Shown piece by piece: positions 31,764-44,473 of a stretch of 64,000 nucleotides of DNA. The stretch covers positions 4,192,001-4,256,000 of the forward strand of contig CBDCJO010000002.1 of NCBI GenBank assembly GCA_965217865.1, read 5' to 3'. The notes beneath the pieces were generated by a model. That model was not told where the DNA came from. It made no database searches and saw only the letters and a list, made by a program, of their open reading frames with translations. The position numbers and the translations under genes are program-made. The stretch comes from Candidatus Latescibacterota bacterium (GTDB lineage: Bacteria; Latescibacterota; UBA2968; SICM01). The first letter of the stretch is position 1. Each line of letters opens with the position of its first letter.

Positions 31764-32192
31764 GGCTCTGATATTCCTGTTACGAGAACGACCGCTCTGC
31801 TCATGGTCGTTGGATGAGGAGATTGGCAGGAAGGCGACTATCTGACCGCCCAACCTGCACAAAGCGCTCTCGTCCTTGACCAACTCAGTGCCTCATCTGG
31901 CCACGTTCAATCCCACCATCTCTCCTCCCCACACTTTCTCGAACGGTAACTCGTTATTGAACTCAAGAATGCAGTATATCCTCTTCTATTCTGGAAATAT
32001 GCTGCAAGTGTGTTTGTCCCATCTCGTCCCATGTCATTTAACGTCTTCGCCACTTGCGAACCCGCCACCGGCGGGTTGCCGGAGGCCAAGGCGCGAATGC
32101 GCCGCAGCGCAAGTCGCGCTGTTAGAAGATGTGGTATACCCCCATCTATCCAAACTGTAAATCAAATGAAGACTTTACTACGGTTTATAAGC

Positions 32193-32672
32193 TCACCAAG
32201 AGTCAAGAAAATTCTTACTGCGCTCGTGAAGTCTGGCGCCTTTCGGCGGCATAAGGAATCTGAACCCAGACTTCTCGTGTGTCTGCCATTTGTATGGAGT
32301 ATCGCATCGTGGACACTTGATAGCATTATTCTCCGGTTCGCATCCCCGCATTGTCGCATGGCAGACTTTACAAAACGTCACACAACCGTAGCTATCTATG
32401 TCTCGCGATTGTTTCTCGCCAGAGAAATCGTCATGGACAGTCTTGCAATTCAAGCAGACGAATAGCCCATGTCTATCAGGTTTCCTTCCTTCATATTCAC
32501 GGAAATACCGCAGTATGGCCTCCTGTGCTTCGATGCTGATTTGACGAAAGGATTTCACTTTGGCTTCGCAGAACTGACATGGAAAGCTAATCCACTCCAC
32601 CAGTTTCTTCAGACCAAAAGCAAACACCACCAGTCCCGCGAGGCCAAATCCAATAAGAAGTGCTGGATGCAT
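32193..32672 (-). CDS. Hypothetical membrane-anchored protein with four CxxC pairs (cassette gene)
   Basis: N-terminal TM helix; CQFC, CLNC, CKVC, CPRC. Confidence 0.7.
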   Translation of the reverse strand: MHPALLIGFGLAGLVVFAFGLKKLVEWISFPCQFCEAKVKSFRQISIEAQEAILRYFREYEGRKPDRHGLFVCLNCKTVHDDFSGEKQSRDIDSYGCVTFCKVCHATMRGCEPENNAIKCPRCDTPYKWQTHEKSGFRFLMPPKGARLHERSKNFLDSW

Positions 32673-33017
32673 GGTTCATCTCCAATTTCGGACCTGCAAT
32701 TGAGCAGCGACAACGCAGTATATCCCGATCTATTCCGGAGCTATACTAAACAGGTCTCTATCCCTTCCATTTCTTCTAACGTCCGCGCACTTGCGAACTG
32801 CCGGCCTGTCCTCCGGAGCTGCGGCCTGTCCTTCCGAAGCTCCGAAGGAGCGAAGGAGGAAGGAGCGAAGGAGGGAGGAAAGTTGGGTCGAGGGCCGTCA
32901 GGCCTGAGCCGCAAGTGCAGTTGTTATGGGAAGTTCCAGCCGGCTTCTTGACTATCTTCCCAAAAAGCATCAACTTCAGAATCGGATATTGGGTCTTAAT
33001 TTCAGAAGAGCGATCCT

Positions 33018-33668
33018 ATGGAAGATCTACAATCACTCATTAGACAGACGCGAGAAGGCAATCTCCGCGCATTTGGCTATGTAGTCCGAAGATTTCACGA
33101 CATGGCGGTCGGATACGCCTTCTCCATCCTGAACGATTTTCATTTGGCGGAAGATGTCGCTCAAGAAGCCTTTGTGCAGGCTTTCTCCAGGCTCAGTCAG
33201 CTTACGGCCCGCAGGAAACTGAAGGACATCATCACCAGCAAATTCGATGAGTTGTTGCCAGAAACTTCGCCAACACACACCTATCAAGGAGCCCAGCATA
33301 TGTTCAAAACGATGTTTCCCGAGCTGCACGTATCCGACGTCGAAAAGGCGGCGACCTTTTTCTCAGAGGCGCTTGGTTTCAAAAGAGGATTTACATACGA
33401 GGAGGAGGGGAATCTGGACTTCGTTGTAATGTCCCACGGAGACAAGACCATATACCTCCACCACATGCTTCCTGATGTTGAGTCCGAGCAACCACGTCGG
33501 ATGAGACTCTACTTCCAGCCGTACGACATTGATCGCCTTCACACAGAGCTGAAGTCAAAGGGGTTCCAGGTTTCGCAGCTTGAAGATGAGAGCTACGGGG
33601 CAAGGACGTTCACTCTGAAAGGACCTGACCAGTACGAGATTTGGTTCCAGCAATGGACATCGAACTAG
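33018..33668 (+). CDS. Internally deleted ECF sigma factor fused to a VOC/glyoxalase domain (inverted within its cassette)
   Basis: VRRFHDMAVGYAFSILNDFHLAEDVAQEAF jumps to TARRKLK; then PELHVSDVEKAATFFSEALGF...YGARTFTLKGPD. Confidence 0.75.
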   Translation: MEDLQSLIRQTREGNLRAFGYVVRRFHDMAVGYAFSILNDFHLAEDVAQEAFVQAFSRLSQLTARRKLKDIITSKFDELLPETSPTHTYQGAQHMFKTMFPELHVSDVEKAATFFSEALGFKRGFTYEEEGNLDFVVMSHGDKTIYLHHMLPDVESEQPRRMRLYFQPYDIDRLHTELKSKGFQVSQLEDESYGARTFTLKGPDQYEIWFQQWTSN

Positions 33669-33792
33669 AGTTACCTTGGGCTGGAATTTCCCATAACGTC
33701 TCGCGCATGTCCGCAGCGAGGATTTGGGAGGAAGCCGGTGGTTTTCTCCGGCTGTAGCCGGACATGCGCTGTTATATGAAGTTCGACCCCAT

Positions 33793-34539
33793 TCAATTAT
33801 ACTTTGTAGATATTTCATTGTACGATAAATTTCCCCCATAGATGTCAAGGGCAGAACCAACCGTAAAATTGATTTTGCTATTTCCATGCTTCTCTACTAA
33901 TGATATATCATTATATGATTTTATTCCTCCTGCATATGTTGTAGTAATAGGAGAAAATTCACCAAGCATTTTTATCAAATCTACTTCAACGCCTGACATT
34001 TTCCCTTCAACATCAACAGCATGCACTAAAAATTCATCACAATATTCTGATAAAAACAATAAGCAATCTTTATCAATTTTACAGTTTGTGAACTTGCTCC
34101 ACTTGTCGGTCATAATATAATAATCTGTCTCCTTTTTCCTTGAACTCAGATCTAATACAATATTATCTTTTTCAACAACCTTTCGGAGTTTTTTAAGATT
34201 ATTTAGATCAATTTCACCATTATTAAACACAAATGATGTTACAATTATATGTGATGCTCCTTTTGAAATATAATAGTCAGCATTTTCGTCATTAATCCCA
34301 CCGCCAACTTGAAGCCCTTTTGGGAACACTTCAAGGGCCTTTATTACTTGAGATTCATTTCCAGGGCCTAGCATCATAATATGACCGCCATATAGATTGC
34401 TGTTTTTAAACATTGTAGCATAATAGGTTGCTGGTTGAGTAGAAATAAAATTCTGTTTAATTTCATTGTCTTTTAATGTACTGCCAATAATCTGTTTTAC
34501 TAATCCATTATGAAGGTCAATACATGACCTGAATTTCAT
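33793..34539 (-). CDS. hisA: ProFAR isomerase, His6-like HisA type (cassette gene)
   Basis: KFRSCIDLHNGLVKQIIGST, LQVGGGIN, EFLVHAVDVEG, TYAGG, TVGSALDIYGG; very AT-rich. Confidence 0.88.
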   Translation of the reverse strand: MKFRSCIDLHNGLVKQIIGSTLKDNEIKQNFISTQPATYYATMFKNSNLYGGHIMMLGPGNESQVIKALEVFPKGLQVGGGINDENADYYISKGASHIIVTSFVFNNGEIDLNNLKKLRKVVEKDNIVLDLSSRKKETDYYIMTDKWSKFTNCKIDKDCLLFLSEYCDEFLVHAVDVEGKMSGVEVDLIKMLGEFSPITTTYAGGIKSYNDISLVEKHGNSKINFTVGSALDIYGGNLSYNEISTKYN

Positions 34540-34747
34540 TTATCATTACCTATTAGAAATATTATACAATGGGGTCGAATTTCATATCACGTTTCGGCTG
34601 TCCTGAACCGCGAAGCGGTTGGGTCGGAAGGAGCGAAGCGACTGGAGCCAGGAACAGCCTGATATTAATATAAAGGCCCTCGTTGTCAGGAGAGGTTATA
34701 ATTGAGATCCGGATATCTCAATCACCTTTCTCCCACAGGAGGGCCTT

Positions 34748-35791
34748 ATGCAATACGCAAGGATCGACTCGAACTATTTCTGTGGCATCGATCTCCACGC
34801 CAGAACGATGTTTGTCTGCATCATGGACAAGATGGGAGAGATTGTGTTCCAGCGCAACCTGAAAAACGACTTCAAGCTCCTGCTGCAGGTGCTGGAAACT
34901 CACCTCGGTAGCATCGCCGTCGGGGTGGAGTCAACCTTCAACTGGTACTGGCTGGCTGACGGGTGTCACAAGGCCGGGATTCCATTCTACCTGGGACACG
35001 CCCTGTATATGAAGGCGATCCATGGGGGCAAGAAAAAGAACGACCGTCTCGATTCCAGAATGCTGGCTGAGCTGATGCGCTGCAACCTGTTCCCGATGGC
35101 CTATGCCTATCCGCAAGAGATGCGGGCAACCCGGGACCTGCTCCGGCGAAGACACCGGTTTGTGGCCTTACGGGCTGAGTGTTACACCCACATCCAGAAC
35201 ACCTTCTCTCAGCAAGCTATCCTGGATCCTCTCAGCGACCAGGTCAAAAAGAAGAGCAACAGGAGAAAGCTGTGCGAACGTCTGGCCGACCCAGATCTGA
35301 GTATGTCTGTGGACTGCGATCTGGACCTGGTTGACTCCCTGGACAAAATGATCTACAAAGTCGAGAAGCAAGTCTTGGCACAGGCCAAACATCACGATCG
35401 CAATGTCCTGTCTATCCTGATGACGGTTCCCGGACTTGGGGAGATGTTGGCCATGACCATCCTGTATGAAATCCACACGATTGAACGGTTCAAATCCGCT
35501 TCAGCCTTCTCCTCCTACAGCCGGCTGATCAAAGTCGAGAGAGAGTCCGCTGGAAAGAAGACAAAGGACGGGAATAACAAAATCGGCAACCCACACCTAA
35601 AGTGGGCCTTCTCAGAAATCATCCTCGTCGCCCAGCGATGGTCAGAACCGATCAATAGATACTACGAGAAGCTCAAAAGCAAACAAGGTCCGGGAAAAGC
35701 CAAGAGCGTCATCGCTCACAAATTCGGCGTGGCCGCCTACCAAATGCTCAAAAACGGCCAGGCATTCGACGAGAAACGGTTTGTAGCATAA
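34748..35791 (+). CDS. IS110 DEDD recombinase/transposase
   Basis: GIDLH, VGVES, KNDRLDS, TVPGLG, ESAGK, KIGNPHLKWA. Confidence 0.93.
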   Translation: MQYARIDSNYFCGIDLHARTMFVCIMDKMGEIVFQRNLKNDFKLLLQVLETHLGSIAVGVESTFNWYWLADGCHKAGIPFYLGHALYMKAIHGGKKKNDRLDSRMLAELMRCNLFPMAYAYPQEMRATRDLLRRRHRFVALRAECYTHIQNTFSQQAILDPLSDQVKKKSNRRKLCERLADPDLSMSVDCDLDLVDSLDKMIYKVEKQVLAQAKHHDRNVLSILMTVPGLGEMLAMTILYEIHTIERFKSASAFSSYSRLIKVERESAGKKTKDGNNKIGNPHLKWAFSEIILVAQRWSEPINRYYEKLKSKQGPGKAKSVIAHKFGVAAYQMLKNGQAFDEKRFVA

Positions 35792-36270
35792 TGGGTGGGG
35801 CGGTTAACCCGGCGCCTAACTGGCAGGGCAACGTCCGGACAATAGCCCAGCTCATCGGCTTGATTGGGAAGCCGCCTTCACCCCTTATTTAGAACATAGA
35901 TGAGCGGATCTGAGACAGTCAGTCCGTCTGCCCCCGCGATGAACCCGAACCTAACTGGCGTTCCCCCTCATAAAAGGGGAGAACAGCCATCCTTCTTGAT
36001 TGGGACTCAAGGGGTACCGATTATTTTCTGGAGGGAGAGGACAATGCCTCTCCCAGGGCGCTCCACAGTATACCGTGAGAGGCGCTTGATTCCCGATACG
36101 TGTTTGGTGCAGATGGCTCACATCTAGCCCGGTTTGTGAAAATCAAGTCAGACCGACGACTGACAAAGATCCGAACATCGCCAAACCTCTTCGGATCGGC
36201 TCATTGCACGCCCCGAACGTTAGGGTCGCAAAAAAACGGTGAAAATCGTGATGGAGGAGTCTTTTTTTCT
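35792..36270 (+). ncRNA. Putative bridge/seek RNA region of the IS1111-type element
   Basis: ~480-nt non-coding right end with two copies of an aacccg..cctaactggc...cttgattggga framework; boundaries uncertain. Confidence 0.55.
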
Positions 36271-36366
36271 TGACCCGGGGCCTTTAATATGTGTTATGTG
36301 TCTGTGGCAGTTTTGCGATGAGTCAAAACAATAAAGGGGACACCATCAACTTCCCTGGTTTTTCTT

Positions 36367-36888
36367 TTAATCTATCACAATTCTCAGTAGGGTTTCAAAA
36401 CGCTTCTCCATATAGTGGACCTCAGGTGCATCTTCTCTTGGCCCCAAATCCTTCCATCCATACTTCAAATAAAATCTCGCCGCAACAGCATTCGACGGAC
36501 TGACATTAAGTCGGGCTCTCTTACATCCAAGCTGTTTAAAAAATAATCCTACATGCTTGTCGAGCAAATAACCCATACCTTTCTCTCGATATTCCGGAAT
36601 CAGATAATAGAGGTTGACATATCCTACAGCGGGGTCAATCCTCCATCTGCCCATCTCGATCTGACCAATGATCTTATCATCCTTCCAGACGTGGATACAG
36701 CTATTAGGAATCTCACCCATGCGCTGTCTGAGCCAGTTAATATATCTTTCGGCTCCTTTTCCATCGACCTCATGGAATCTCTCTGCCGATCCGAAACTGC
36801 AGATGTAAGAATCCTCTCTGAACTTGATGCACAAATCGGCATGTCGCTCCAAATCAATAGGAATGAAATCCAGATGGTCAACCTTCAT
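36367..36888 (-). CDS. GNAT acetyltransferase (cassette gene)
   Basis: LIPEYREKGMG, NAVAARFYLKYGW. Confidence 0.85.
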   Translation of the reverse strand: MKVDHLDFIPIDLERHADLCIKFREDSYICSFGSAERFHEVDGKGAERYINWLRQRMGEIPNSCIHVWKDDKIIGQIEMGRWRIDPAVGYVNLYYLIPEYREKGMGYLLDKHVGLFFKQLGCKRARLNVSPSNAVAARFYLKYGWKDLGPREDAPEVHYMEKRFETLLRIVID

Positions 36889-37256
36889 ACTTTTGTTCCT
36901 ACGACTATAAAATGGTCTTATTCACTGTCGAACAGGCATATCTGAATATCAAGATCGAATTGTGGCAAACCGGGCAAGGATGATGGGAGAACTGATTTTG
37001 TCCCCCTTGTGTTTTTCAGATCGACCCCAAAACTGCCATTGCACATAACGTCTGAACACTCCCGAAGGGGCCGTGTATCGGAAAAGGAAGCAGTGTTTTT
37101 TGCCATCAGCCAATGAATCAGTCACGGCCCTTTTGACCGAGCGCAGCGAGTCGGGAGTGGGTTGTTAAATGCTGGTGGCGCGCCCCCTTCACGGCGAAGC
37201 CCTAAACGGGGCGGAAATACAGCGCACCCCTTCACCTTGTTTTCCCTACTTCGATC

Positions 37257-37853
37257 CTAATCCAACTTCTCCCTCGCAATCTCCACAATCCGGCCTCGCA
37301 CCACCTGTACGTCCTGTTCTCGAACTGTCCCCAGAGATCCTATCTCATCTCGAATCAGGCCTGCCACACGCTCCGTCACATTCTGGAAAATTCGATCCTG
37401 CACGGCCTGGCTAGCCCCATTCAGCGCAACTGCCAAATCTCTCGTATTCAGCTCACGTAGCATCCCTTGTATTTCCCGGTCGCTCAAATTTATAAGATCC
37501 TCAAACGTGTTCACCTCACGTATCCGTTCCGATAACCGACTTACCTGCTCCATCTCTTCGGCCGAAAGCGACCAGTCGAACACATCCATATTCTCTTTCA
37601 GATGCCCCTCTGAACTCGCCTTGGGAATCACCACCATCCCCTGCTGCACCAACCACCGCAGTCCCACCTGCCCGGGGGTCTTACTGTGGCACTGGCCAAT
37701 ATTGATCAGAGCAGGCTCTCCCAGAATGCGACCCCTTCCTAACGGCGTATGTGCTGTCACCACCACGTTGTGTTCTCGACACCATCGCAACACGTCCCGC
37801 TTCTCCTCCCCGGGATGGTACCTGATCTGGTTCACGCTAATGGGTACCTCGCT
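37257..37853 (-). pseudogene. 5'-truncated aldo/keto reductase fused to a FliG C-terminal domain
   Basis: NQIRYHP, AHTPLGRG, IPKASSEGHLKENMDVFDWSLS, then TFEDLINLSDREIQGMLRELNTRDLAVALNGAS...IFQNVTERVA. Confidence 0.82.
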
Positions 37854-38075
37854 AACGTCCGAAGCTGCGCTTTGCCCACCATAGCTTCCATGGCCACCGA
37901 AGCTTCCCTGGCCACCGAAGCGTCAGCGAAGGTGGCAGAGTAGGTGGGCAGCAGCGGAGGAGGAAGTGGGTTGGTGCGGAGCGTAGCGGAGCCGTGAGCC
38001 ACATGTTAAATGCAGTGCAGGTTTAGCATGCACATTACCTGACGGGGCAAATCTTTGACTCTGCGTTGAAGAAAA

Positions 38076-39401
38076 CTACCCTTCCTTCGGTTTCTTGAAC
38101 CACCACGTGGCTTCAAGGTGTTTTGGAGGAGGGGGGTGGGGCAGCGGGATCCAGGCCCCGACATCCACATCAGGACCCGTAGTCCCAGAGGGCCGGATAT
38201 CATCAGACGGACTCCCGTCTCCGGAATACTTGATATATAGCTTTAGAAATTTCGTCTTTTGTGTAACAACATCAGTTCCAAGGAAATTGCGGATCGGGAA
38301 GAAAAGCTTTACCCGTGCCTCACGTGGGGAATATGTATAAGCTCCTGTTGATTCCTCAAGGGAATCGGTACCGGGAGATAAGCGCCACCCTTTCCTCCAG
38401 ACGATCTCTCCTGTATGGCGGACCTGCATTGGTTCGTGAGGCCGAACGATACCCATCTCCTCTACTTCAATGGGCTCATAGGCAGTTCCCTCATTGTCCT
38501 CCAAATAAATGGTCCAGTTCTTCAACGAAAGAAAAGAGGGCGCGTAAGGTGTTCTCACCTTAAGGCGGATGAAAATGGCGTTCTCAATCCGGTTTTTCGA
38601 CCAGTAAGCCTCACGGATCGTAGATAAGTTCCGACCCTTTGGATTGTAGTATTTGCAGATATGGTGGACTTCTGCCTCGACCAGGTCGGGCGACATCAGG
38701 GTGGCGGCCACGGTGAGGGGTGAACGAACAAGACGATTCTCCAGCCCTGGCCCATGCTTTCCACGGGTCGGCTGCCATAAATCGTCTGTAATGTGCGACT
38801 CACCTCGCAGGGGATCGTTTAAGGGCGCGTACGTTCTAACTATCCAAGTCTTCAGGAGGTCGGAGTAGGACTTCGACTGATCCTGCTTCTGGGGCTTGGT
38901 AAAACTGACATAGTAAACATCCGTTTGATTTGGTTCGTGCAGCCCAGCCCAGGTGTCAATGTAACAGAAAGGCATCTTTTGGTTAAACCGAAGGTCCAAC
39001 AGGCGATCCTTGCGTTTCGTCATATCATCCAGACGGTCCTGCTGCCGGCTGTCGAGACTTCCTCTGAAGTTGTTCAAGACTCTGTCGACTTCTGCGATTG
39101 CTTTCTTCTTTCTATCCCTTACCTCGTTGAGGTCTCCACTCATCCCTTTCCAGATAGCTGCTTCAGATGTCATCCTCGCATAGTCCCACTCGAAGGCCTT
39201 CAAAGTATTTCGGATCTGGGAAATCTTCCACCTTGCTGAATCCTGTTGCGCTGGGGATAGCTTTAGTTTCTTTGTGAGCTTTCGAAGGTCCAACAGATCT
39301 TCCGGTCCTCGACCATGACCATAGGCAACCAAAGCCGGAAAAATGATACAGAGCGCCACAAAGAACCGAGGCCAATGTGTGGTAGTACTTTTTCTCACCA
39401 T
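38076..39401 (-). CDS. Secreted hypothetical protein, 441 aa (cassette gene)
   Basis: Signal peptide; helical N-region (LKLSPAQQ...LDSRQQ); no recognised family. Confidence 0.75.
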   Translation of the reverse strand: MVRKSTTTHWPRFFVALCIIFPALVAYGHGRGPEDLLDLRKLTKKLKLSPAQQDSARWKISQIRNTLKAFEWDYARMTSEAAIWKGMSGDLNEVRDRKKKAIAEVDRVLNNFRGSLDSRQQDRLDDMTKRKDRLLDLRFNQKMPFCYIDTWAGLHEPNQTDVYYVSFTKPQKQDQSKSYSDLLKTWIVRTYAPLNDPLRGESHITDDLWQPTRGKHGPGLENRLVRSPLTVAATLMSPDLVEAEVHHICKYYNPKGRNLSTIREAYWSKNRIENAIFIRLKVRTPYAPSFLSLKNWTIYLEDNEGTAYEPIEVEEMGIVRPHEPMQVRHTGEIVWRKGWRLSPGTDSLEESTGAYTYSPREARVKLFFPIRNFLGTDVVTQKTKFLKLYIKYSGDGSPSDDIRPSGTTGPDVDVGAWIPLPHPPPPKHLEATWWFKKPKEG

Positions 39402-39858
39402 TCCCCCCTACCCTTGCTGTAGGTTGAATACCTGCATTGCATTTAATGTTCAGGGTTGCAGAAGTGGCCGTGCATTGGTAAAGATAAAAAAGTTTTACAG
39501 GAAAGTATAAAAGAAAAACCTACGGCCATTTTTGGGGTGGGTGGAAGGTGAGGTGGGGAACTGCAACCCGGTGTTAGACGCCGCGGGCTCCGCTTTTCAC
39601 ATCCTCATGATTTATTTAAGAGAGGCCTCAGTTCCCTTCGCGTTTCCACGGCAGTGCGCTTTGCTCAACGGCTTTTCGGACATTACCGAGCCAAATTGGC
39701 CATAACCAATCCGTCTCGCACCCGAGGGGCAGATACTTCTTGTCAATAATGTGCTTCTGCTCGCGGTCAACTTTGGCTTGGACATAGCGTTCAACCTGAG
39801 AGAAGGGAATCCACGCATAGGGTCCACTCTCAAAGTAGGATCTGTCATTTTTAGGTGT

Positions 39859-40059
39859 TCAAAGGCGACGGTGAGGAGCGCAGAACAGCATTTCGACACC
39901 ATTCCACATCCTCTCGCGGTCGGAGGTCAATCGGACATCAAGCTCGACGGCATCCACGCCAAGGTCAATTGCACGCTGAAAAGCTTGAATAGTATTCTCA
40001 GGTGCTTCACCAGGAGCACCTCTATGAGCTACGATCTCGAATTGATCCACTTTCTCCAA
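39859..40059 (-). pseudogene. Glycerophosphodiester phosphodiesterase N-terminal fragment
   Basis: IVAHRGA...PENTIQAF...[10 protein letters not shown], then similarity is lost. Confidence 0.75.
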
Positions 40060-40335
40060 GGCCGCTGTTTAATAACCGTTTATGAATTGCTCCCCCCCTT
40101 GCCCACTCTCGAATTACCACAAACCCTCATTTCGCCTAACGATTTCGCCGTGCCCGAACCGGCGGCTTGTCCACCGAAGCGGCGTCTTACCCACCGTAGC
40201 TTCCCTGGCCACCGAAGCGTCAGCGAAGGTGGGCAGCCGCGAAGGTGGAAGCCGGTTGGGCGAAGGGCGTAAGCCCGTAGCCGGGCACGGACGTGTTATG
40301 CGGCGTTAGCTTCCTCTCGTTCATCACAAGGGAAA

Positions 40336-40917
40336 TTAAGAATCCAACATTTTCCTCAAGTGCTGCAATACCAGTGTATCTCGTTTAGTCCAAAGCGGCG
40401 GATTCGCGGTCGGCGAATTAAGTAGAGCCGAGTTTTTCTGGATCGCATCATCGATTGTTACCCAGGTAGGAGTAAACTCCAGATCCTCTTCGTATTGATC
40501 CAAGGTTTGCTCTCCGAGCGTCGGCTCTACGTCACAGAGATAATAGTGGGATCTCATCTTAAAAACGTCGTAGTCTGCATCAGAAGCCGGACCGTAGGTT
40601 ACCATCTTTCCATAAGCACCACGAACAGCCGTAACCTTTGTCCCACACTCTTCACGTATTTCTCGAACAAGTGCCTCTTCGTGCGTCTCGCCAGACTCAA
40701 TGCCACCACCTGGAAACTTGAAATCGCCATTCTTGGGAGAGAATACCATCAGCAACTCACATTCACGAAGAATAATGCCCCGTACCGCATCTCTCAGACA
40801 TGTCCGACCACTGAGATCTAGGTCTTCCGGCCGAATCAGTTTTCCAATAACTTGCATATCGTATAACTCTTTAGTGATGTGATCGCGAGTTGATGCTACC
40901 AGAGGTTGATGAGTCAA
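40336..40917 (-). CDS. NUDIX hydrolase (cassette gene)
   Basis: KFPGGGIESGETHEEALVREIREECG; true start probably the internal MQVIGK. Confidence 0.85.
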   Translation of the reverse strand: MTHQPLVASTRDHITKELYDMQVIGKLIRPEDLDLSGRTCLRDAVRGIILRECELLMVFSPKNGDFKFPGGGIESGETHEEALVREIREECGTKVTAVRGAYGKMVTYGPASDADYDVFKMRSHYYLCDVEPTLGEQTLDQYEEDLEFTPTWVTIDDAIQKNSALLNSPTANPPLWTKRDTLVLQHLRKMLDS

Positions 40918-41219
40918 CTAAGTCTCTAACTAATGCCGCATAACGTTCGTGGATCTCTAAACCCGCCCGTGTTTTTTTGGCGGGTTGCCGAAGGCCGAAC
41001 GACCGAAGGGAGTGAGCAGAGATCCATTGTTATAGGATGTGCCAGCCCGGGGTGGGGTAGGGGCTTGCCAAGAACGGAAAGCTTCGGAGAATCTTCAAGA
41101 CGCAGATAGCATATCTCCTGGAGCATATGTCTCCACAGGGCCTCCTTCGCTACATCCAGCCCCCCTCATGTCCTGGTTAAACAGCGATCTCAGCCTGGGC
41201 TCTCCGAGGTTGCCTACAG

Positions 41220-41870
41220 TCAATATAGGACATTGAGCTTCTGCTCAACAATATGGGGGTTGTCACCGCTTTGAATCGACTTGATGCCCTCAAGGACTTT
41301 CCGATATTTCACCTTCTGTTCATGTAGCAAAGACTCCATCCAGGTGCTAAGAATTGCCTGAACCAGTTCTGGTTCCGTTCCATCCACGGCTAGCCGAACA
41401 GCCGTAGTCAAAAACTTATCGCCCGGGCTTTGCACCATATTTTCCAACGTCATGATGCCTTCTCTCCGAGCTATCTCGGCAAACCCGACAAACAGCCTGT
41501 TAATCTCATCGGAACCGAGCTCAGAGAGCGGACGCTTGATGGTGGTTCTTATCGCCCGTTTCGTAGCGAGGTATTTCTTCCCAAGCTTGGGCTTTTTAAG
41601 TTGCCTTACAGTTTTCACGATGGACAACTGCACATCCTCCACATCGCGCATTGGAATCGGATCGGAAATTTCCATTTCCTCTCTGACCATCGTCCGCACA
41701 CGCTTCGACATATTGCCAAATATTCGACCTTTCAGCTCCTTTGTCGCACCTTTCAGTGCAACAGCCAGGTCTTTCGTGTCCACCTCCCGTAGCATCAGCT
41801 GGATCTCCCGATCCGTTAGTTTCGAGAGATCGTCAAAGGTGATTTCATGGGTTGCTTGCGTCGCTGACAT
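41220..41870 (-). CDS. FliG C-terminal domain fused to the cytoplasmic part of MotA, no TM helices (cassette gene)
   Basis: AAGGAGG RBS; TFDDLSKLTDREIQLMLREVDTKDLAVALKGA...NMSKRVRTMVREEM (FliG_C); AEIARREGIMTLE...FLTTAVRLAVDGTEPE and LEGIKSIQSGDNPHIVEQKL (MotA). Confidence 0.85.
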   Translation of the reverse strand: MSATQATHEITFDDLSKLTDREIQLMLREVDTKDLAVALKGATKELKGRIFGNMSKRVRTMVREEMEISDPIPMRDVEDVQLSIVKTVRQLKKPKLGKKYLATKRAIRTTIKRPLSELGSDEINRLFVGFAEIARREGIMTLENMVQSPGDKFLTTAVRLAVDGTEPELVQAILSTWMESLLHEQKVKYRKVLEGIKSIQSGDNPHIVEQKLNVLY

Positions 41871-42054
41871 GATTATGTCCTCCTTATGAGTCGTTAAGGG
41901 TGGTCTGGGATGGCCGCCTCTTGTTTTTGGGCTGGCATTTCCTATAACGTTCAGTGGCTCACGAACCCGCGCCAGCGGGTTGGTGCGGAGCGCAGCGGAG
42001 CCGTGAGCCACATGTTATGAGAAGTGCTGCCCGAAGATACTTCCACAGCATCGC

Positions 42055-43031
42055 TCATCGAGCACCGAGGGACGCATATCCGCTTCGCTCCCAAATCTGC
42101 TCTGGGGGGTACTTGTAGAAGTCCAGCCAGGAGTCCTTCCCGTGCCGATTCGTGTATGCCTCACAGAGTCGGAATCCCAAAAAGTAGGCAAGTCGATCGA
42201 CGGCGCCGTCCCAAGGATAGACGTGCCACTGGTGGAACTTGCTTATCGTCTCCCAATCACATGAGCCGAGATCCGGAACCGCAGCTGACACTACCTCCCG
42301 CTCATGGGCTAGTGCCCATTTCCACGCTTCCTCGCTGAACGATATATGCTTCGGCGAAGAGCCGCGTCCCTCCCAGCATATCCGGTTCAGAAAGCAGCAG
42401 AATCCTTCCTCCACTATCGACCTGACGAGTGTTATCGGAACTGAGGGATGAGCCGTGTTGTAGACTTGATGGTTCAGCTCGTGCGGCAGCATGAACCTGA
42501 AATGCTCTTCCGGCTTTTCCCCAAGATTGGACAGATTTGCCCACATCGTACCTTGGGTCCCTCCAAGATCTCCGCCAGCCAAGTAAACCAGGTACCAGTC
42601 CCCATGGGGCTTGCGTCCCGTGGTCCGAATGAATATCTCAGCAACCTCGCTGAACATATCGGTGAAATTGAGCCGGAAAGGGAGTTGGAAGGCCGGGTTC
42701 CCGACATCAGAGATCTCGGGAATCCCCGTTTCGGCCCACTGGCGGAGGTTTTCCTCCCTGGGGAAGAGAAACTGCCATAGGTGAGGTGAATGGCCGGTAG
42801 GTGTCTACGACGAACTGGTGTGTTCGTCGAGCGAGGTCCTGACCATCAGTTCGCGCCACGGAGAGGATCTGCTCTTTCCAGACGTGGATGAGCCTCAGGC
42901 CGGTATTCGGAATGAATTCCTCAACTGCCGGCGATGCTTCCAGAATCCGGGTAGCTTCCTGCAGGCTCTGTGGAATCTGTGGTGCCAATGCCAGAACCTC
43001 ACTTTGGAGTCAGCAGTATGGGTTTGCTCAT
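42055..43031 (-). pseudogene. DUF2268-like putative Zn metalloprotease, frameshifted (first cassette)
   Basis: PHELNH, VEEG, AYFLGFRLC; several frame breaks upstream of 42700. Confidence 0.6.
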
Positions 43032-43048
43032 TTCACGGGCAGCATTTC

Positions 43049-43130
43049 TCATAACTTACGGTATTCCTGAACTCCTACGCAGATTCCATCATTTCGGCAC
43101 ATCTCCCGCCCTTCGCAGATACCTCCCCAC
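43049..43130 (-). other. Probable attI site
   Basis: GTTATGA core (43055-43049, minus) complementary to the end of cassette 1; no attC hairpin upstream; next to the integrase remnant; upstream boundary uncertain. Confidence 0.55.
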
Positions 43131-43576: not shown

Positions 43577-44473
43577 GGTGATTGAGTAGATATTGGCACC
43601 AGCGTATATTAATAATATGCTGGTAATTAATCCACTTAAGTTAGCAAATGACTGCAAGATAAGTAGGGCCTATTTTCGTGCAGCCCGTTGGGGTGGAAAA
43701 AGGCGATGTCCAAGCTGCGATTATCAGCGCAGGTTGCCCTTATTAAAAGACGATCGGTTCAGGTGTTCACGGTGTGGATATCGGTTTAAAGATTTCACGG
43801 GCACTTATCTTGAAAGGCTTCGAATTTCATTTGACGAGCTTGCCCATTTACTTTATCTGTTTGTATTGGGAGTGCCCTCTTACCGATCCAGGCACTACCT
43901 GTCCGTATCGCTGAAAACGGCTCAGCGGATTTATACCACGTTTCGCCAGGCCATCTACGATCATAGCTTTACGGACCAGGTGCTTTGGGGTGAGATCGAG
44001 TTGGACGAGGCGATGTATGGAGGTCATCATAAGGGTAAGCGTGGATGGGGAGCAGCCGGAAAACACTTGGTTTTCGGGCTTTATCAGAGGAACGGAAAAG
44101 TCCTCACCTTTCCCATTCCGGATCGAAGTCGAAACACCCTTACACCGCTTGTGACCTCACACACCAAAGCAGGCAGTCTATACTACACCGATGACTGGCA
44201 CGCCTACACTTGGCTGTCAGTCAAAGGTGACCACGTGGTTGTTCGAAAAGAAGAAGGGGTGCCCAAAGGCAAAGGCCGACATCACATCAATGGCATCGAA
44301 GGCTTCTGGAGTTTTTCTAAAAATTGGCTATATCAATACAGAGGAATCCCTCGACATCATTTCCATTTATACCTGAAGGAAACAGAGTTCAGATTCAACC
44401 AGGAAGACGAGGATCTCTTCCCAATTATTGCTTCATATCTGGTGAATCTGGTACCAATATCTTCCTAATTACC
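43577..44473 (+). mobile_element. IS1595-family insertion sequence (transposase 43593-44468)
   Basis: IRs ggtgattgagtagatattggcacc / ggtaccaatatcttcctaattacc; 8-bp DR TAATTTTA; Zn ribbon, IELDEAMYGG, YYTDDW, HINGIEGFWS, YLKETEFRFN. Confidence 0.92.

Follow-up and report, generated by a model that had tools for sequence, protein, structure and literature searches.

What could a single soluble protein do with a surface of the flagellar rotor and a surface of the stator? The question is raised by a gene in the window (the whole 64,000-nt stretch of DNA that was analysed), whose product, P0001, carries the torque domain of FliG (G) and a membrane-less cytoplasmic domain of MotA (M). The latter is usually regarded as inseparable from the membrane ion motor, and here it is a free soluble domain that has no Pfam model. 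The gene, its domains and its flanks were as follows:

41220..41870, minus strand: ORF of 216 aa with an open frame, coding for FliG_C plus a membrane-less MotA cytoplasmic domain (G-M architecture; P0001)
41879..41884, minus strand: Shine-Dalgarno sequence AGGAGG, 8 nt before the ATG of the G-M gene
41598..41843, minus strand: FliG C-terminal torque domain, residues 10-91 (positions 19-101 of the 108 of Pfam FliG_C)
41535..41597, minus strand: basic linker, residues 92-112, which in the alignment lacks about 17 residues relative to the rest of the subfamily
41307..41534, minus strand: MotA cytoplasmic loop (between TM2 and TM3), residues 113-188, with R135, E143 and D163, from structure and profile matches
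41223..41306, minus strand: MotA C-terminal tail (after TM4), residues 189-216, continuous with the last helix of the loop, from structure, profile and model
40938..41035, minus strand: downstream attC-like site, the G-M cassette's own, a TAAC/GTTA-box hairpin (-18.4 kcal/mol on the opposite strand, -15.9 kcal/mol on the gene strand)
41942..42020, minus strand: upstream attC-like site, belonging to the preceding cassette (-26.1 and -22.3 kcal/mol, respectively)
41029..41048 and 41929..41948, unstranded: 20-bp inverted repeat closing the cassette, 90% complementary

The two halves of the protein and their charges

The initial annotation had described an intact ORF with a strong ribosome-binding site, alone in a cassette, and this was borne out by the open frame, the AGGAGG and the one-gene cassette. 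An alternative in-frame GTG start at 42011 (263 aa) was rejected: that frame crosses the upstream attC-like site and the homologues begin at the ATG, so 216 aa is the correct length. Contigs from four of four runs, which belonged to four studies, spanned the ORF without a gap, and an assembly chimera was thus ruled out for the G-M gene. Two of these runs gave contigs with the same sequence as the window, which may itself derive from one of the two.

Residues 10-92 of P0001 matched Pfam FliG_C (PF01706) with an E-value of 8e-29, and the FliG half of the structure model superposed on FliG_C structures at Z 12-15.5 and an rmsd of 1.4-2.7, which agreed with the annotated FliG_C domain with its torque helix. 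This half had the fold of the FliG torque domain (PDB 1qc7, 1lkv, 8ucs_H, 8umd_B), kept the torque-helix charges and was 64-65% identical to the host genome's own FliG. Residues 11-95 of the model matched residues 239-323 of the FliG fragment docked between two MotA subunits in 8UCS, as far as the accessible description of that entry goes. Unlike FliG, P0001 had no FliG_N or FliG_M domain (the Pfam scan found FliG_C as the only FliG domain), had lost the equivalent of R297 and was fused to a stator-derived domain; against TIGR00207 (full FliG) it scored 78.2 bits, under the cut-off of 226.7 bits. The retained piece lacked the FliF- and FliM-binding parts as well as the last FliG helix. Because FliG_N and FliG_M are absent, P0001 cannot enter the C-ring via FliF or FliM as FliG does. 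The last helix was removed, together with a conserved Trp-Pro motif, by the deletion of about 17 residues in the linker. The short linker had the same length in the contigs of all four runs; it was found in P0001 and two near-identical copies, and the other members of the subfamily retained these residues.

In the second half, residues 120-181 matched five MotA/PomA/MotP NCBIfam models (E 1.5e-14 to 8e-9), four of the five in two stretches, and the Pfam scan gave no match to PF01618 (MotA). Residues 76-138 and 222-244 of Clostridium sporogenes MotA (PDB) corresponded to residues 119-181 and 190-212 of P0001. A profile-profile comparison with HH-suite (31 family rows against 16 membrane MotAs) gave a probability of 99.94 over 99 columns with a single gap, which covered TM3-TM4, and this confirmed that the loop is joined directly to the C-terminal tail, as had been annotated. 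In 12 membrane MotAs, two motifs are separated by 111-119 residues; in P0001 the distance was 40, i.e., 71-79 residues were removed. The absence of transmembrane segments that had been expected was also found: the maximal 19-residue hydropathy was 0.63, vs. 2.1-2.8 in three membrane MotAs. The MotA loop was 54-57% identical to Latescibacterota MotAs. Compared with the stator A subunit MotA/PomA with its four-helix torque-generating interface (TGI4 in the accessible text of PMC12505986; PDB 8ucs, 6ykm, 8brd), P0001 keeps the loop, the C-terminal tail and R135/E143/D163, but is without all four transmembrane helices, the ion path and an adjoining motB. The neighbours of the G-M gene were a NUDIX cassette and a DUF2268 cassette.

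By their defining features, P0001 is neither FliG nor MotA. A soluble or fused form of MotA is not mentioned in the accessible part of PMC12505986, which treats MotA structural classes, and no description of the architecture was found in the full-text literature, a body in which subscription journals are largely uncovered. Judged from sequence, the soluble FliG_C-MotA architecture is real and undescribed in the texts searched, and its function is putative.

In the available texts, the torque-interface charges of E. coli are given as R90/E98 and R281/D288/D289 (PMC12505986), PomA R88, E96 and D114 are termed indispensable for motility, and R232 is treated as a structural salt bridge (10.1101/2022.11.25.517900). 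Residues were mapped from the match ranges; FliG numbering followed an offset of 224 to Salmonella FliG (8umd_B), which had equal match spans. P0001 R57/E64/E65 corresponded to FliG R281/D288/D289, K40 to K264, and R135/E143/D163 to PomA R88/E96/D114. Among 29 subfamily members, R57, E65, R135 and D163 were conserved in all 29, and E64 and E143 were acidic in 26 each. The annotated retention of the R90/E98- and R281/D288/D289-type charges was therefore upheld. It did not extend to the position of FliG R297, which is Pro73, or to the tail arginine at the R232 position, which is His206 in P0001 and Arg in 26 of the 29 members. In a second, more distant subfamily (subfamily B, below), R57 was kept in 18/18 and R135 in 16/18 members, and E65, the second acidic residue of the torque helix, was mostly lost. 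Such conservation could equally stem from folding needs or recent descent.

Cassette array, host genes and strain variation

The G-M gene lies in an array (~32100-43100) of single ORFs flanked by hairpins that have TAAC and GTTA boxes at their ends and were identified with a scan of our own rather than a curated attC model. Like attC sites, both hairpins flanking the G-M gene were more stable when folded from the opposite strand than from that of the gene. The inverted-repeat pattern of this cassette recurred in five other array units. In four of four runs, other contigs diverged from the window sequence at 42017, a point where repeats can also break contigs, and runs X8 and X11 covered the G-M gene but not its upstream neighbour at 42048-43050 (traces only in X11). 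As in integron cassettes and CALINs, the latter being attC clusters without an integrase, the G-M unit is one ORF with a ribosome-binding site between attC-like hairpins, and its neighbours vary between strains at the attC boundary. The array differs in that the cassette ends are complementary over ~14-20 bp, where 7 bp is usual in integrons, and in the lack of an IntI over the cut-off: none of the 12 TIGR02249 matches in the assembly exceeded 265 bits. The best match to the integron integrase model, under the cut-off, was a split tyrosine recombinase (G000 C2:1657172-1658360).

Several units of the array were unusual. In six (window 32121-43055), 13-15 of 16 bases at the ends were complementary, and in some the complementarity extended over 20-34 bp. 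Contig C2 contained 32 such complementary end pairs at a threshold of at least 14, and its first 2 Mb contained 16, vs. 4 in a shuffled sequence. The unit at 37257-37835 (minus strand) encoded the C-terminal part of an aldo/keto reductase fused to FliG_C, and the cassette at 33018-33668 (plus strand), opposite to most neighbours, encoded a fusion of sigma-70 region 2 with a glyoxalase domain. The ORFs at 34748-35791 and 43593-44468, which resemble IS110- and IS1595-type transposases, were also found; the second sits within 34-bp inverted repeats.

The names of homologues suggest that the host belongs to Candidatus Latescibacterota. Its genome contained fliF, five Flagellin_N matches, three full copies of fliG and one motA-motB pair. 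Further FliG_M and FliG_C genes were present, and such expansions recurred through the class. Among the host's FliG_C genes, one encoded two FliG_C domains and a hydrophobic C-terminal stretch (L003:6787-8286), two stood alone (L005:5019-5402 and L004:5707-5994), and one was an ECF sigma-FliG_C fusion (L006:4667-5584). The only motA found in the genome was frameshifted by an extra base in a seven-G run (L002:10413-10419; G000 C2:3900412-3900418). The extra G was common to the contigs of three runs and absent in the related strain of run X8. A slip of this kind can be reversible, and phase variation of motility is possible.

Selection on the gene differed with the comparison. Against the homologue in locus L010, dN was 0.32 and dS 3.4; other gene pairs were saturated, with third positions changing most, and selection at the level of the family is purifying. 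Against two related strains, six of eight differences were non-synonymous, so the short-linker copy had no sign of constraint in this very small sample of eight sites.

Family members and the predicted domain swap

Among the 120 matches listed, 31 including the query covered at least 91% of P0001, with 43-99% identity and nearly all with a length of 227-237 aa. The initial annotation had suggested looking for full-length homologues, and at least 30 were found to share the architecture. P0004 was 99% identical to P0001 and had an unrelated C-terminus. The host genome carries a second G-M gene, P0122, which is 28% identical to P0001:

L001:7571-8700 (G000 C2:2803570-2804699): P0122 G-M gene, overlapping the 5' end of an ECF sigma gene in a conserved pairing; a shared upstream motif was seen by eye

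P0122 had 19 relatives among 404 candidates (subfamily B). A sigma-70-family gene was located directly downstream in 12 of 12 subfamily-B loci tested; in this count L014 equals L118, L124 and L127 are near-identical, L128 is not included, and L129-L131, with weak FliG matches, were dropped. The subfamily of P0001 had no conserved neighbour in the three loci compared (L008, L010 and the window) and no output domain, and no ECF sigma gene adjoined the gene in the window.

A profile of the M domain retrieved 727 representatives at E 1e-10 or better, ordinary MotAs included. Among the best 150 of the 727, 148 had the contiguous (spliced) form and two were membrane MotAs. The architectures in these 150 were G-M-M (46), G-M (33), M-M (30) and M (21), with rarer ones up to five M and two G, and many of the rows without G are fragments. 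Two multi-repeat clusters were labelled Treponema, and the five-repeat forms occurred there. On this profile evidence, the membrane-less MotA domain is a repeatable soluble domain of a widespread family, repeated up to five times and found in records labelled Latescibacterota as well as Treponema. Clusters of like proteins in the Atlas were commonest in Thermodesulfobacteriota, Spirochaetota and Bacillota, with few labelled members. When 51 chosen representatives were scanned, fusions to ECF sigma factors (4), SpoIIE (3), sigma-54 AAA (1), TPR (1) and LRR (1) were observed, and some members carried FliG_M or FliG_N. A crude screen flagged signal-peptide-like starts in 11 of the 150 top representatives, of which four were set aside as membrane MotA-like or doubtful and seven retained. 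In two SpoIIE fusions the M-M pair preceded the last transmembrane helix and was apparently outside the cytoplasm.

A genome scan with the subfamily alignment kept 80 loci, of which 4 were fusions and 76 ordinary MotAs. In a FastTree phylogeny of 321 domains and 102 columns, support was 0.997 for subfamily A, 0.982 for subfamily B and 0.911 for the multi-repeat forms; the tree, in which the MotA rows were without tails, did not resolve one origin from several. Some unusual relatives were also noted. P0271, from a cluster of 4, naturally combines a membrane MotA with a C-terminal FliG_C. In P0178, TM1-TM2 are combined with the spliced soluble tail; this protein could represent either an intermediate or a chimeric assembly. 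An N-terminal domain of ~80 residues with no Pfam match preceded many G-M and G-M-M modules (L011-L013, L017-L020; 20 of the 150 representatives).

The structure model of P0001 (pLDDT 82, pTM 0.63) contained one 34-residue helix, residues 167-200, that spans the splice. Its C-terminal half matched MotA at Z 5.1-5.5 and an rmsd of 5.6-6.0; the match stopped at MotA residue 205 and the tail was unmatched. Foldseek with this single-M model reached MotA at an E-value of 2.9 only. The model of a natural G-M-M protein, P0142 (52-row alignment), had a pLDDT of 94 and a pTM of 0.88, and its residues 129-361 superposed on MotA 72-250 at Z 16.1 and an rmsd of 3.5. In this model, one MotA domain is thus rebuilt from two repeats, of which repeat 1 supplies the loop and repeat 2 the tail. 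Nine other stator entries were matched at Z 10.5-16.6, some with high rmsd. According to the models, a lone membrane-less MotA domain thus needs a second copy to be complete.

The geometry of the splice points the same way. In MotA the helix into TM3 is antiparallel to the helix out of TM4, so a straight join should direct the tail away from its own domain. The junction was 38-39 residues long in 278 of 288 M domains, with little Gly or Pro, and a control segment had its modal length in 208 of 291. Since the tandem pair restores the MotA fold and the single domain does not, a helix-swapped homodimer is predicted for single-M proteins such as P0001. In place of the pentamer of stator MotA, the models of single chains predict a two-fold swapped pair or a tandem repeat. 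Neither within nor across 79 tandem pairs did the covariation of loop and tail speak for or against the swap. In the tandem relative, the FliG domain is predicted to hold a fixed place on the M-M pair; the packing was rigid (pTM 0.88 in P0142), and two Atlas models agreed over 347 residues at a TM-score of 0.90.

Flagellated hosts and the putative function

The distribution of the module was compared in 168 genomes of the phylum, 73 with and 95 without flagellin. A firm contiguous M domain was present in at least 19 of the 73 flagellin-positive and at least one of the 95 flagellin-negative genomes, a count that omits five borderline genomes, all flagellin-positive, and in which related genomes are non-independent samples. 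Among the matches listed, 94 of the 95 flagellin-negative genomes had no G-M profile match, including 15 of one genus at 92-100% completeness, and 54 of the 73 flagellin-positive genomes had no firm copy. Four genera contained both flagellin states, and none of their 33 flagellin-negative genomes matched. In this phylum, the module disappears with the flagellum. The one flagellin-negative carrier, G032 (one small contig), had a G-M-M gene and no match to flagellin, FliF or FliG_M. As this genome is 75% complete and lacks FliF and FliG_M, and its four family relatives had no match, contamination is possible. In genome G038, a G-M gene lay between a SpoIIE gene and fliM on one strand, directly upstream of fliM (L145:418-2169).

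The reading that we tentatively prefer, at a little short of an even chance, is that P0001 is a soluble mimic of rotor and stator that binds motor parts as a decoy or stand-in, or reports the state of the motor. The splice would fuse the helix into TM3 and the helix out of TM4 into a single helix of 34 residues; with the tail unable to fold back, two copies would exchange tails and rebuild two MotA-type globules in a helix-swapped dimer. The FliG domain may then occupy the inter-subunit cleft of the stator, or FliG may be capped by the MotA globules. Binding to real stators or to FliG of the C-ring would damp torque or titrate motor-linked regulators, and in relatives the same module may couple the motor to ECF sigma factors, SpoIIE phosphatases or a sigma-54 activator. 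The bias towards flagellated genomes, the G-M gene upstream of fliM, the conservation of both charge sets and the match to the fragment that docks between MotA subunits in 8UCS (accessible description) are consistent with such a mimic. Thus, of the annotated motor clutch or decoy, the decoy remains the best reading, and binding to the motor is putative. Several observations weigh against it. In a swapped dimer, an antiparallel helix pair would hold the two globules apart, one at each end, whereas those of the MotA ring form a pincer side by side; the dimer may therefore offer half-sites only. The FliG domain of 8UCS was covalently tethered to MotA (PMC11302681, accessible text), which suggests weak binding. 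In addition, E65 was mostly lost in subfamily B, covariation did not favour the swap, and P0001 itself has the linker deletion, His206 and the six non-synonymous differences in a host whose only motA found is frameshifted.

A self-contained signalling module is possible and rather less probable. Here the FliG and MotA parts would bind each other in the dimer and act on ECF sigma factors and phosphatases as a switch or an anti-sigma-type partner, without contact to the motor, and the charges would be kept for that internal contact. The downstream sigma-70-family genes of subfamily B, the fusions to ECF sigma, SpoIIE and sigma-54 AAA domains and the rigid G-M-M packing point to it. The non-pincer geometry, the exported-looking members, the SpoIIE topology and the flagellum-less G032, which all speak against the mimic, favour such a module, at least in other branches. 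It is opposed by the 94 flagellin-negative genomes without a match and by the subfamily of P0001, with neither a conserved neighbour nor an output domain. The autoinhibited switch of the initial annotation, pictured as a single chain that closes on itself, needs revision, since FliG binds between two neighbouring MotA domains (PMC11302681, accessible text) and a single M is incomplete in the models.

That the family is functional and the copy in the window a relaxed, slowly decaying passenger, in a host strain that may have turned its motor off, is unlikely. The loss of the last FliG helix and the Trp-Pro motif, the unrelated C-terminus of P0004, differences between strains as under neutral change, the extra base of motA in three runs and the lack of an integron integrase over the cut-off would fit. 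However, all four runs had the frame and ribosome-binding site intact, eight sites do not suffice for a measure of selection, dN was far below dS against L010, and a G-run slip that can reverse is absent in the X8 strain. Least likely of the four, and improbable in our judgement, is a role ahead of motor assembly as a chaperone or store, in which the protein would cover the stator face or the torque helix of surplus FliG paralogues: the fliG expansions and the members with FliG_M or FliG_N are compatible with it, but it explains neither the sigma-factor and phosphatase fusions nor the protein's own FliG domain, and the 54 flagellin-positive genomes without a firm copy argue against it.

MotI is a motor clutch or brake. 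As described in the accessible texts, FapA (10.64898/2026.10.14.759253), YcgR (PMC10140304) and EpsE (PMC3000366) share with the decoy the proposed outcome that a cytoplasmic protein masks the MotA-FliG contact. Their folds appear unrelated to P0001 (ferredoxin-like plus beta-solenoid in FapA, a c-di-GMP receptor in YcgR, glycosyltransferase-like in EpsE), and none of these three, as so described, is built from the motor's own two surfaces. No FapA, PilZ or EpsE fold was among the listed Pfam and fold-search matches of P0001, whose whole length was accounted for by FliG and MotA. The engineered MotA-FliG_C fusion of 8UCS (PMC11302681, accessible text) combines the same FliG fragment with MotA in one chain, but it is artificial and membrane-embedded and carries FliG at its C-terminus.

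If the binding of P0001 to the motor holds, it would be a clutch made of the motor's own surfaces and a candidate link from motor engagement to gene control, a long-open question of surface sensing. More speculatively, and with rather more doubt than hope, the torque contact may have been turned into a reusable signalling module, in which stator engagement would be read or set by sigma factors, phosphatases and free decoys through a soluble self-dimerising MotA domain and a FliG tip, with motor state passed on directly to transcription; such a module could travel on integron cassettes. Even without motor binding, the natural G-M-M proteins are a small soluble scaffold for the study of FliG-MotA contacts. 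New here are the test of the swap, the phylum-wide flagellin comparison and the cassette setting.

None of 56 pattern matches in IMG/VR indicated viral carriage, and none of 50,697 phage records had a match. One of 72,556 plasmid records had an M-domain match. Plasmid pTS2 of the cultured Treponema saccharophilum encoded a weak M-domain match (WP_002704070.1, E 2e-6, L152:3971-4516), which is a possible culturable system.
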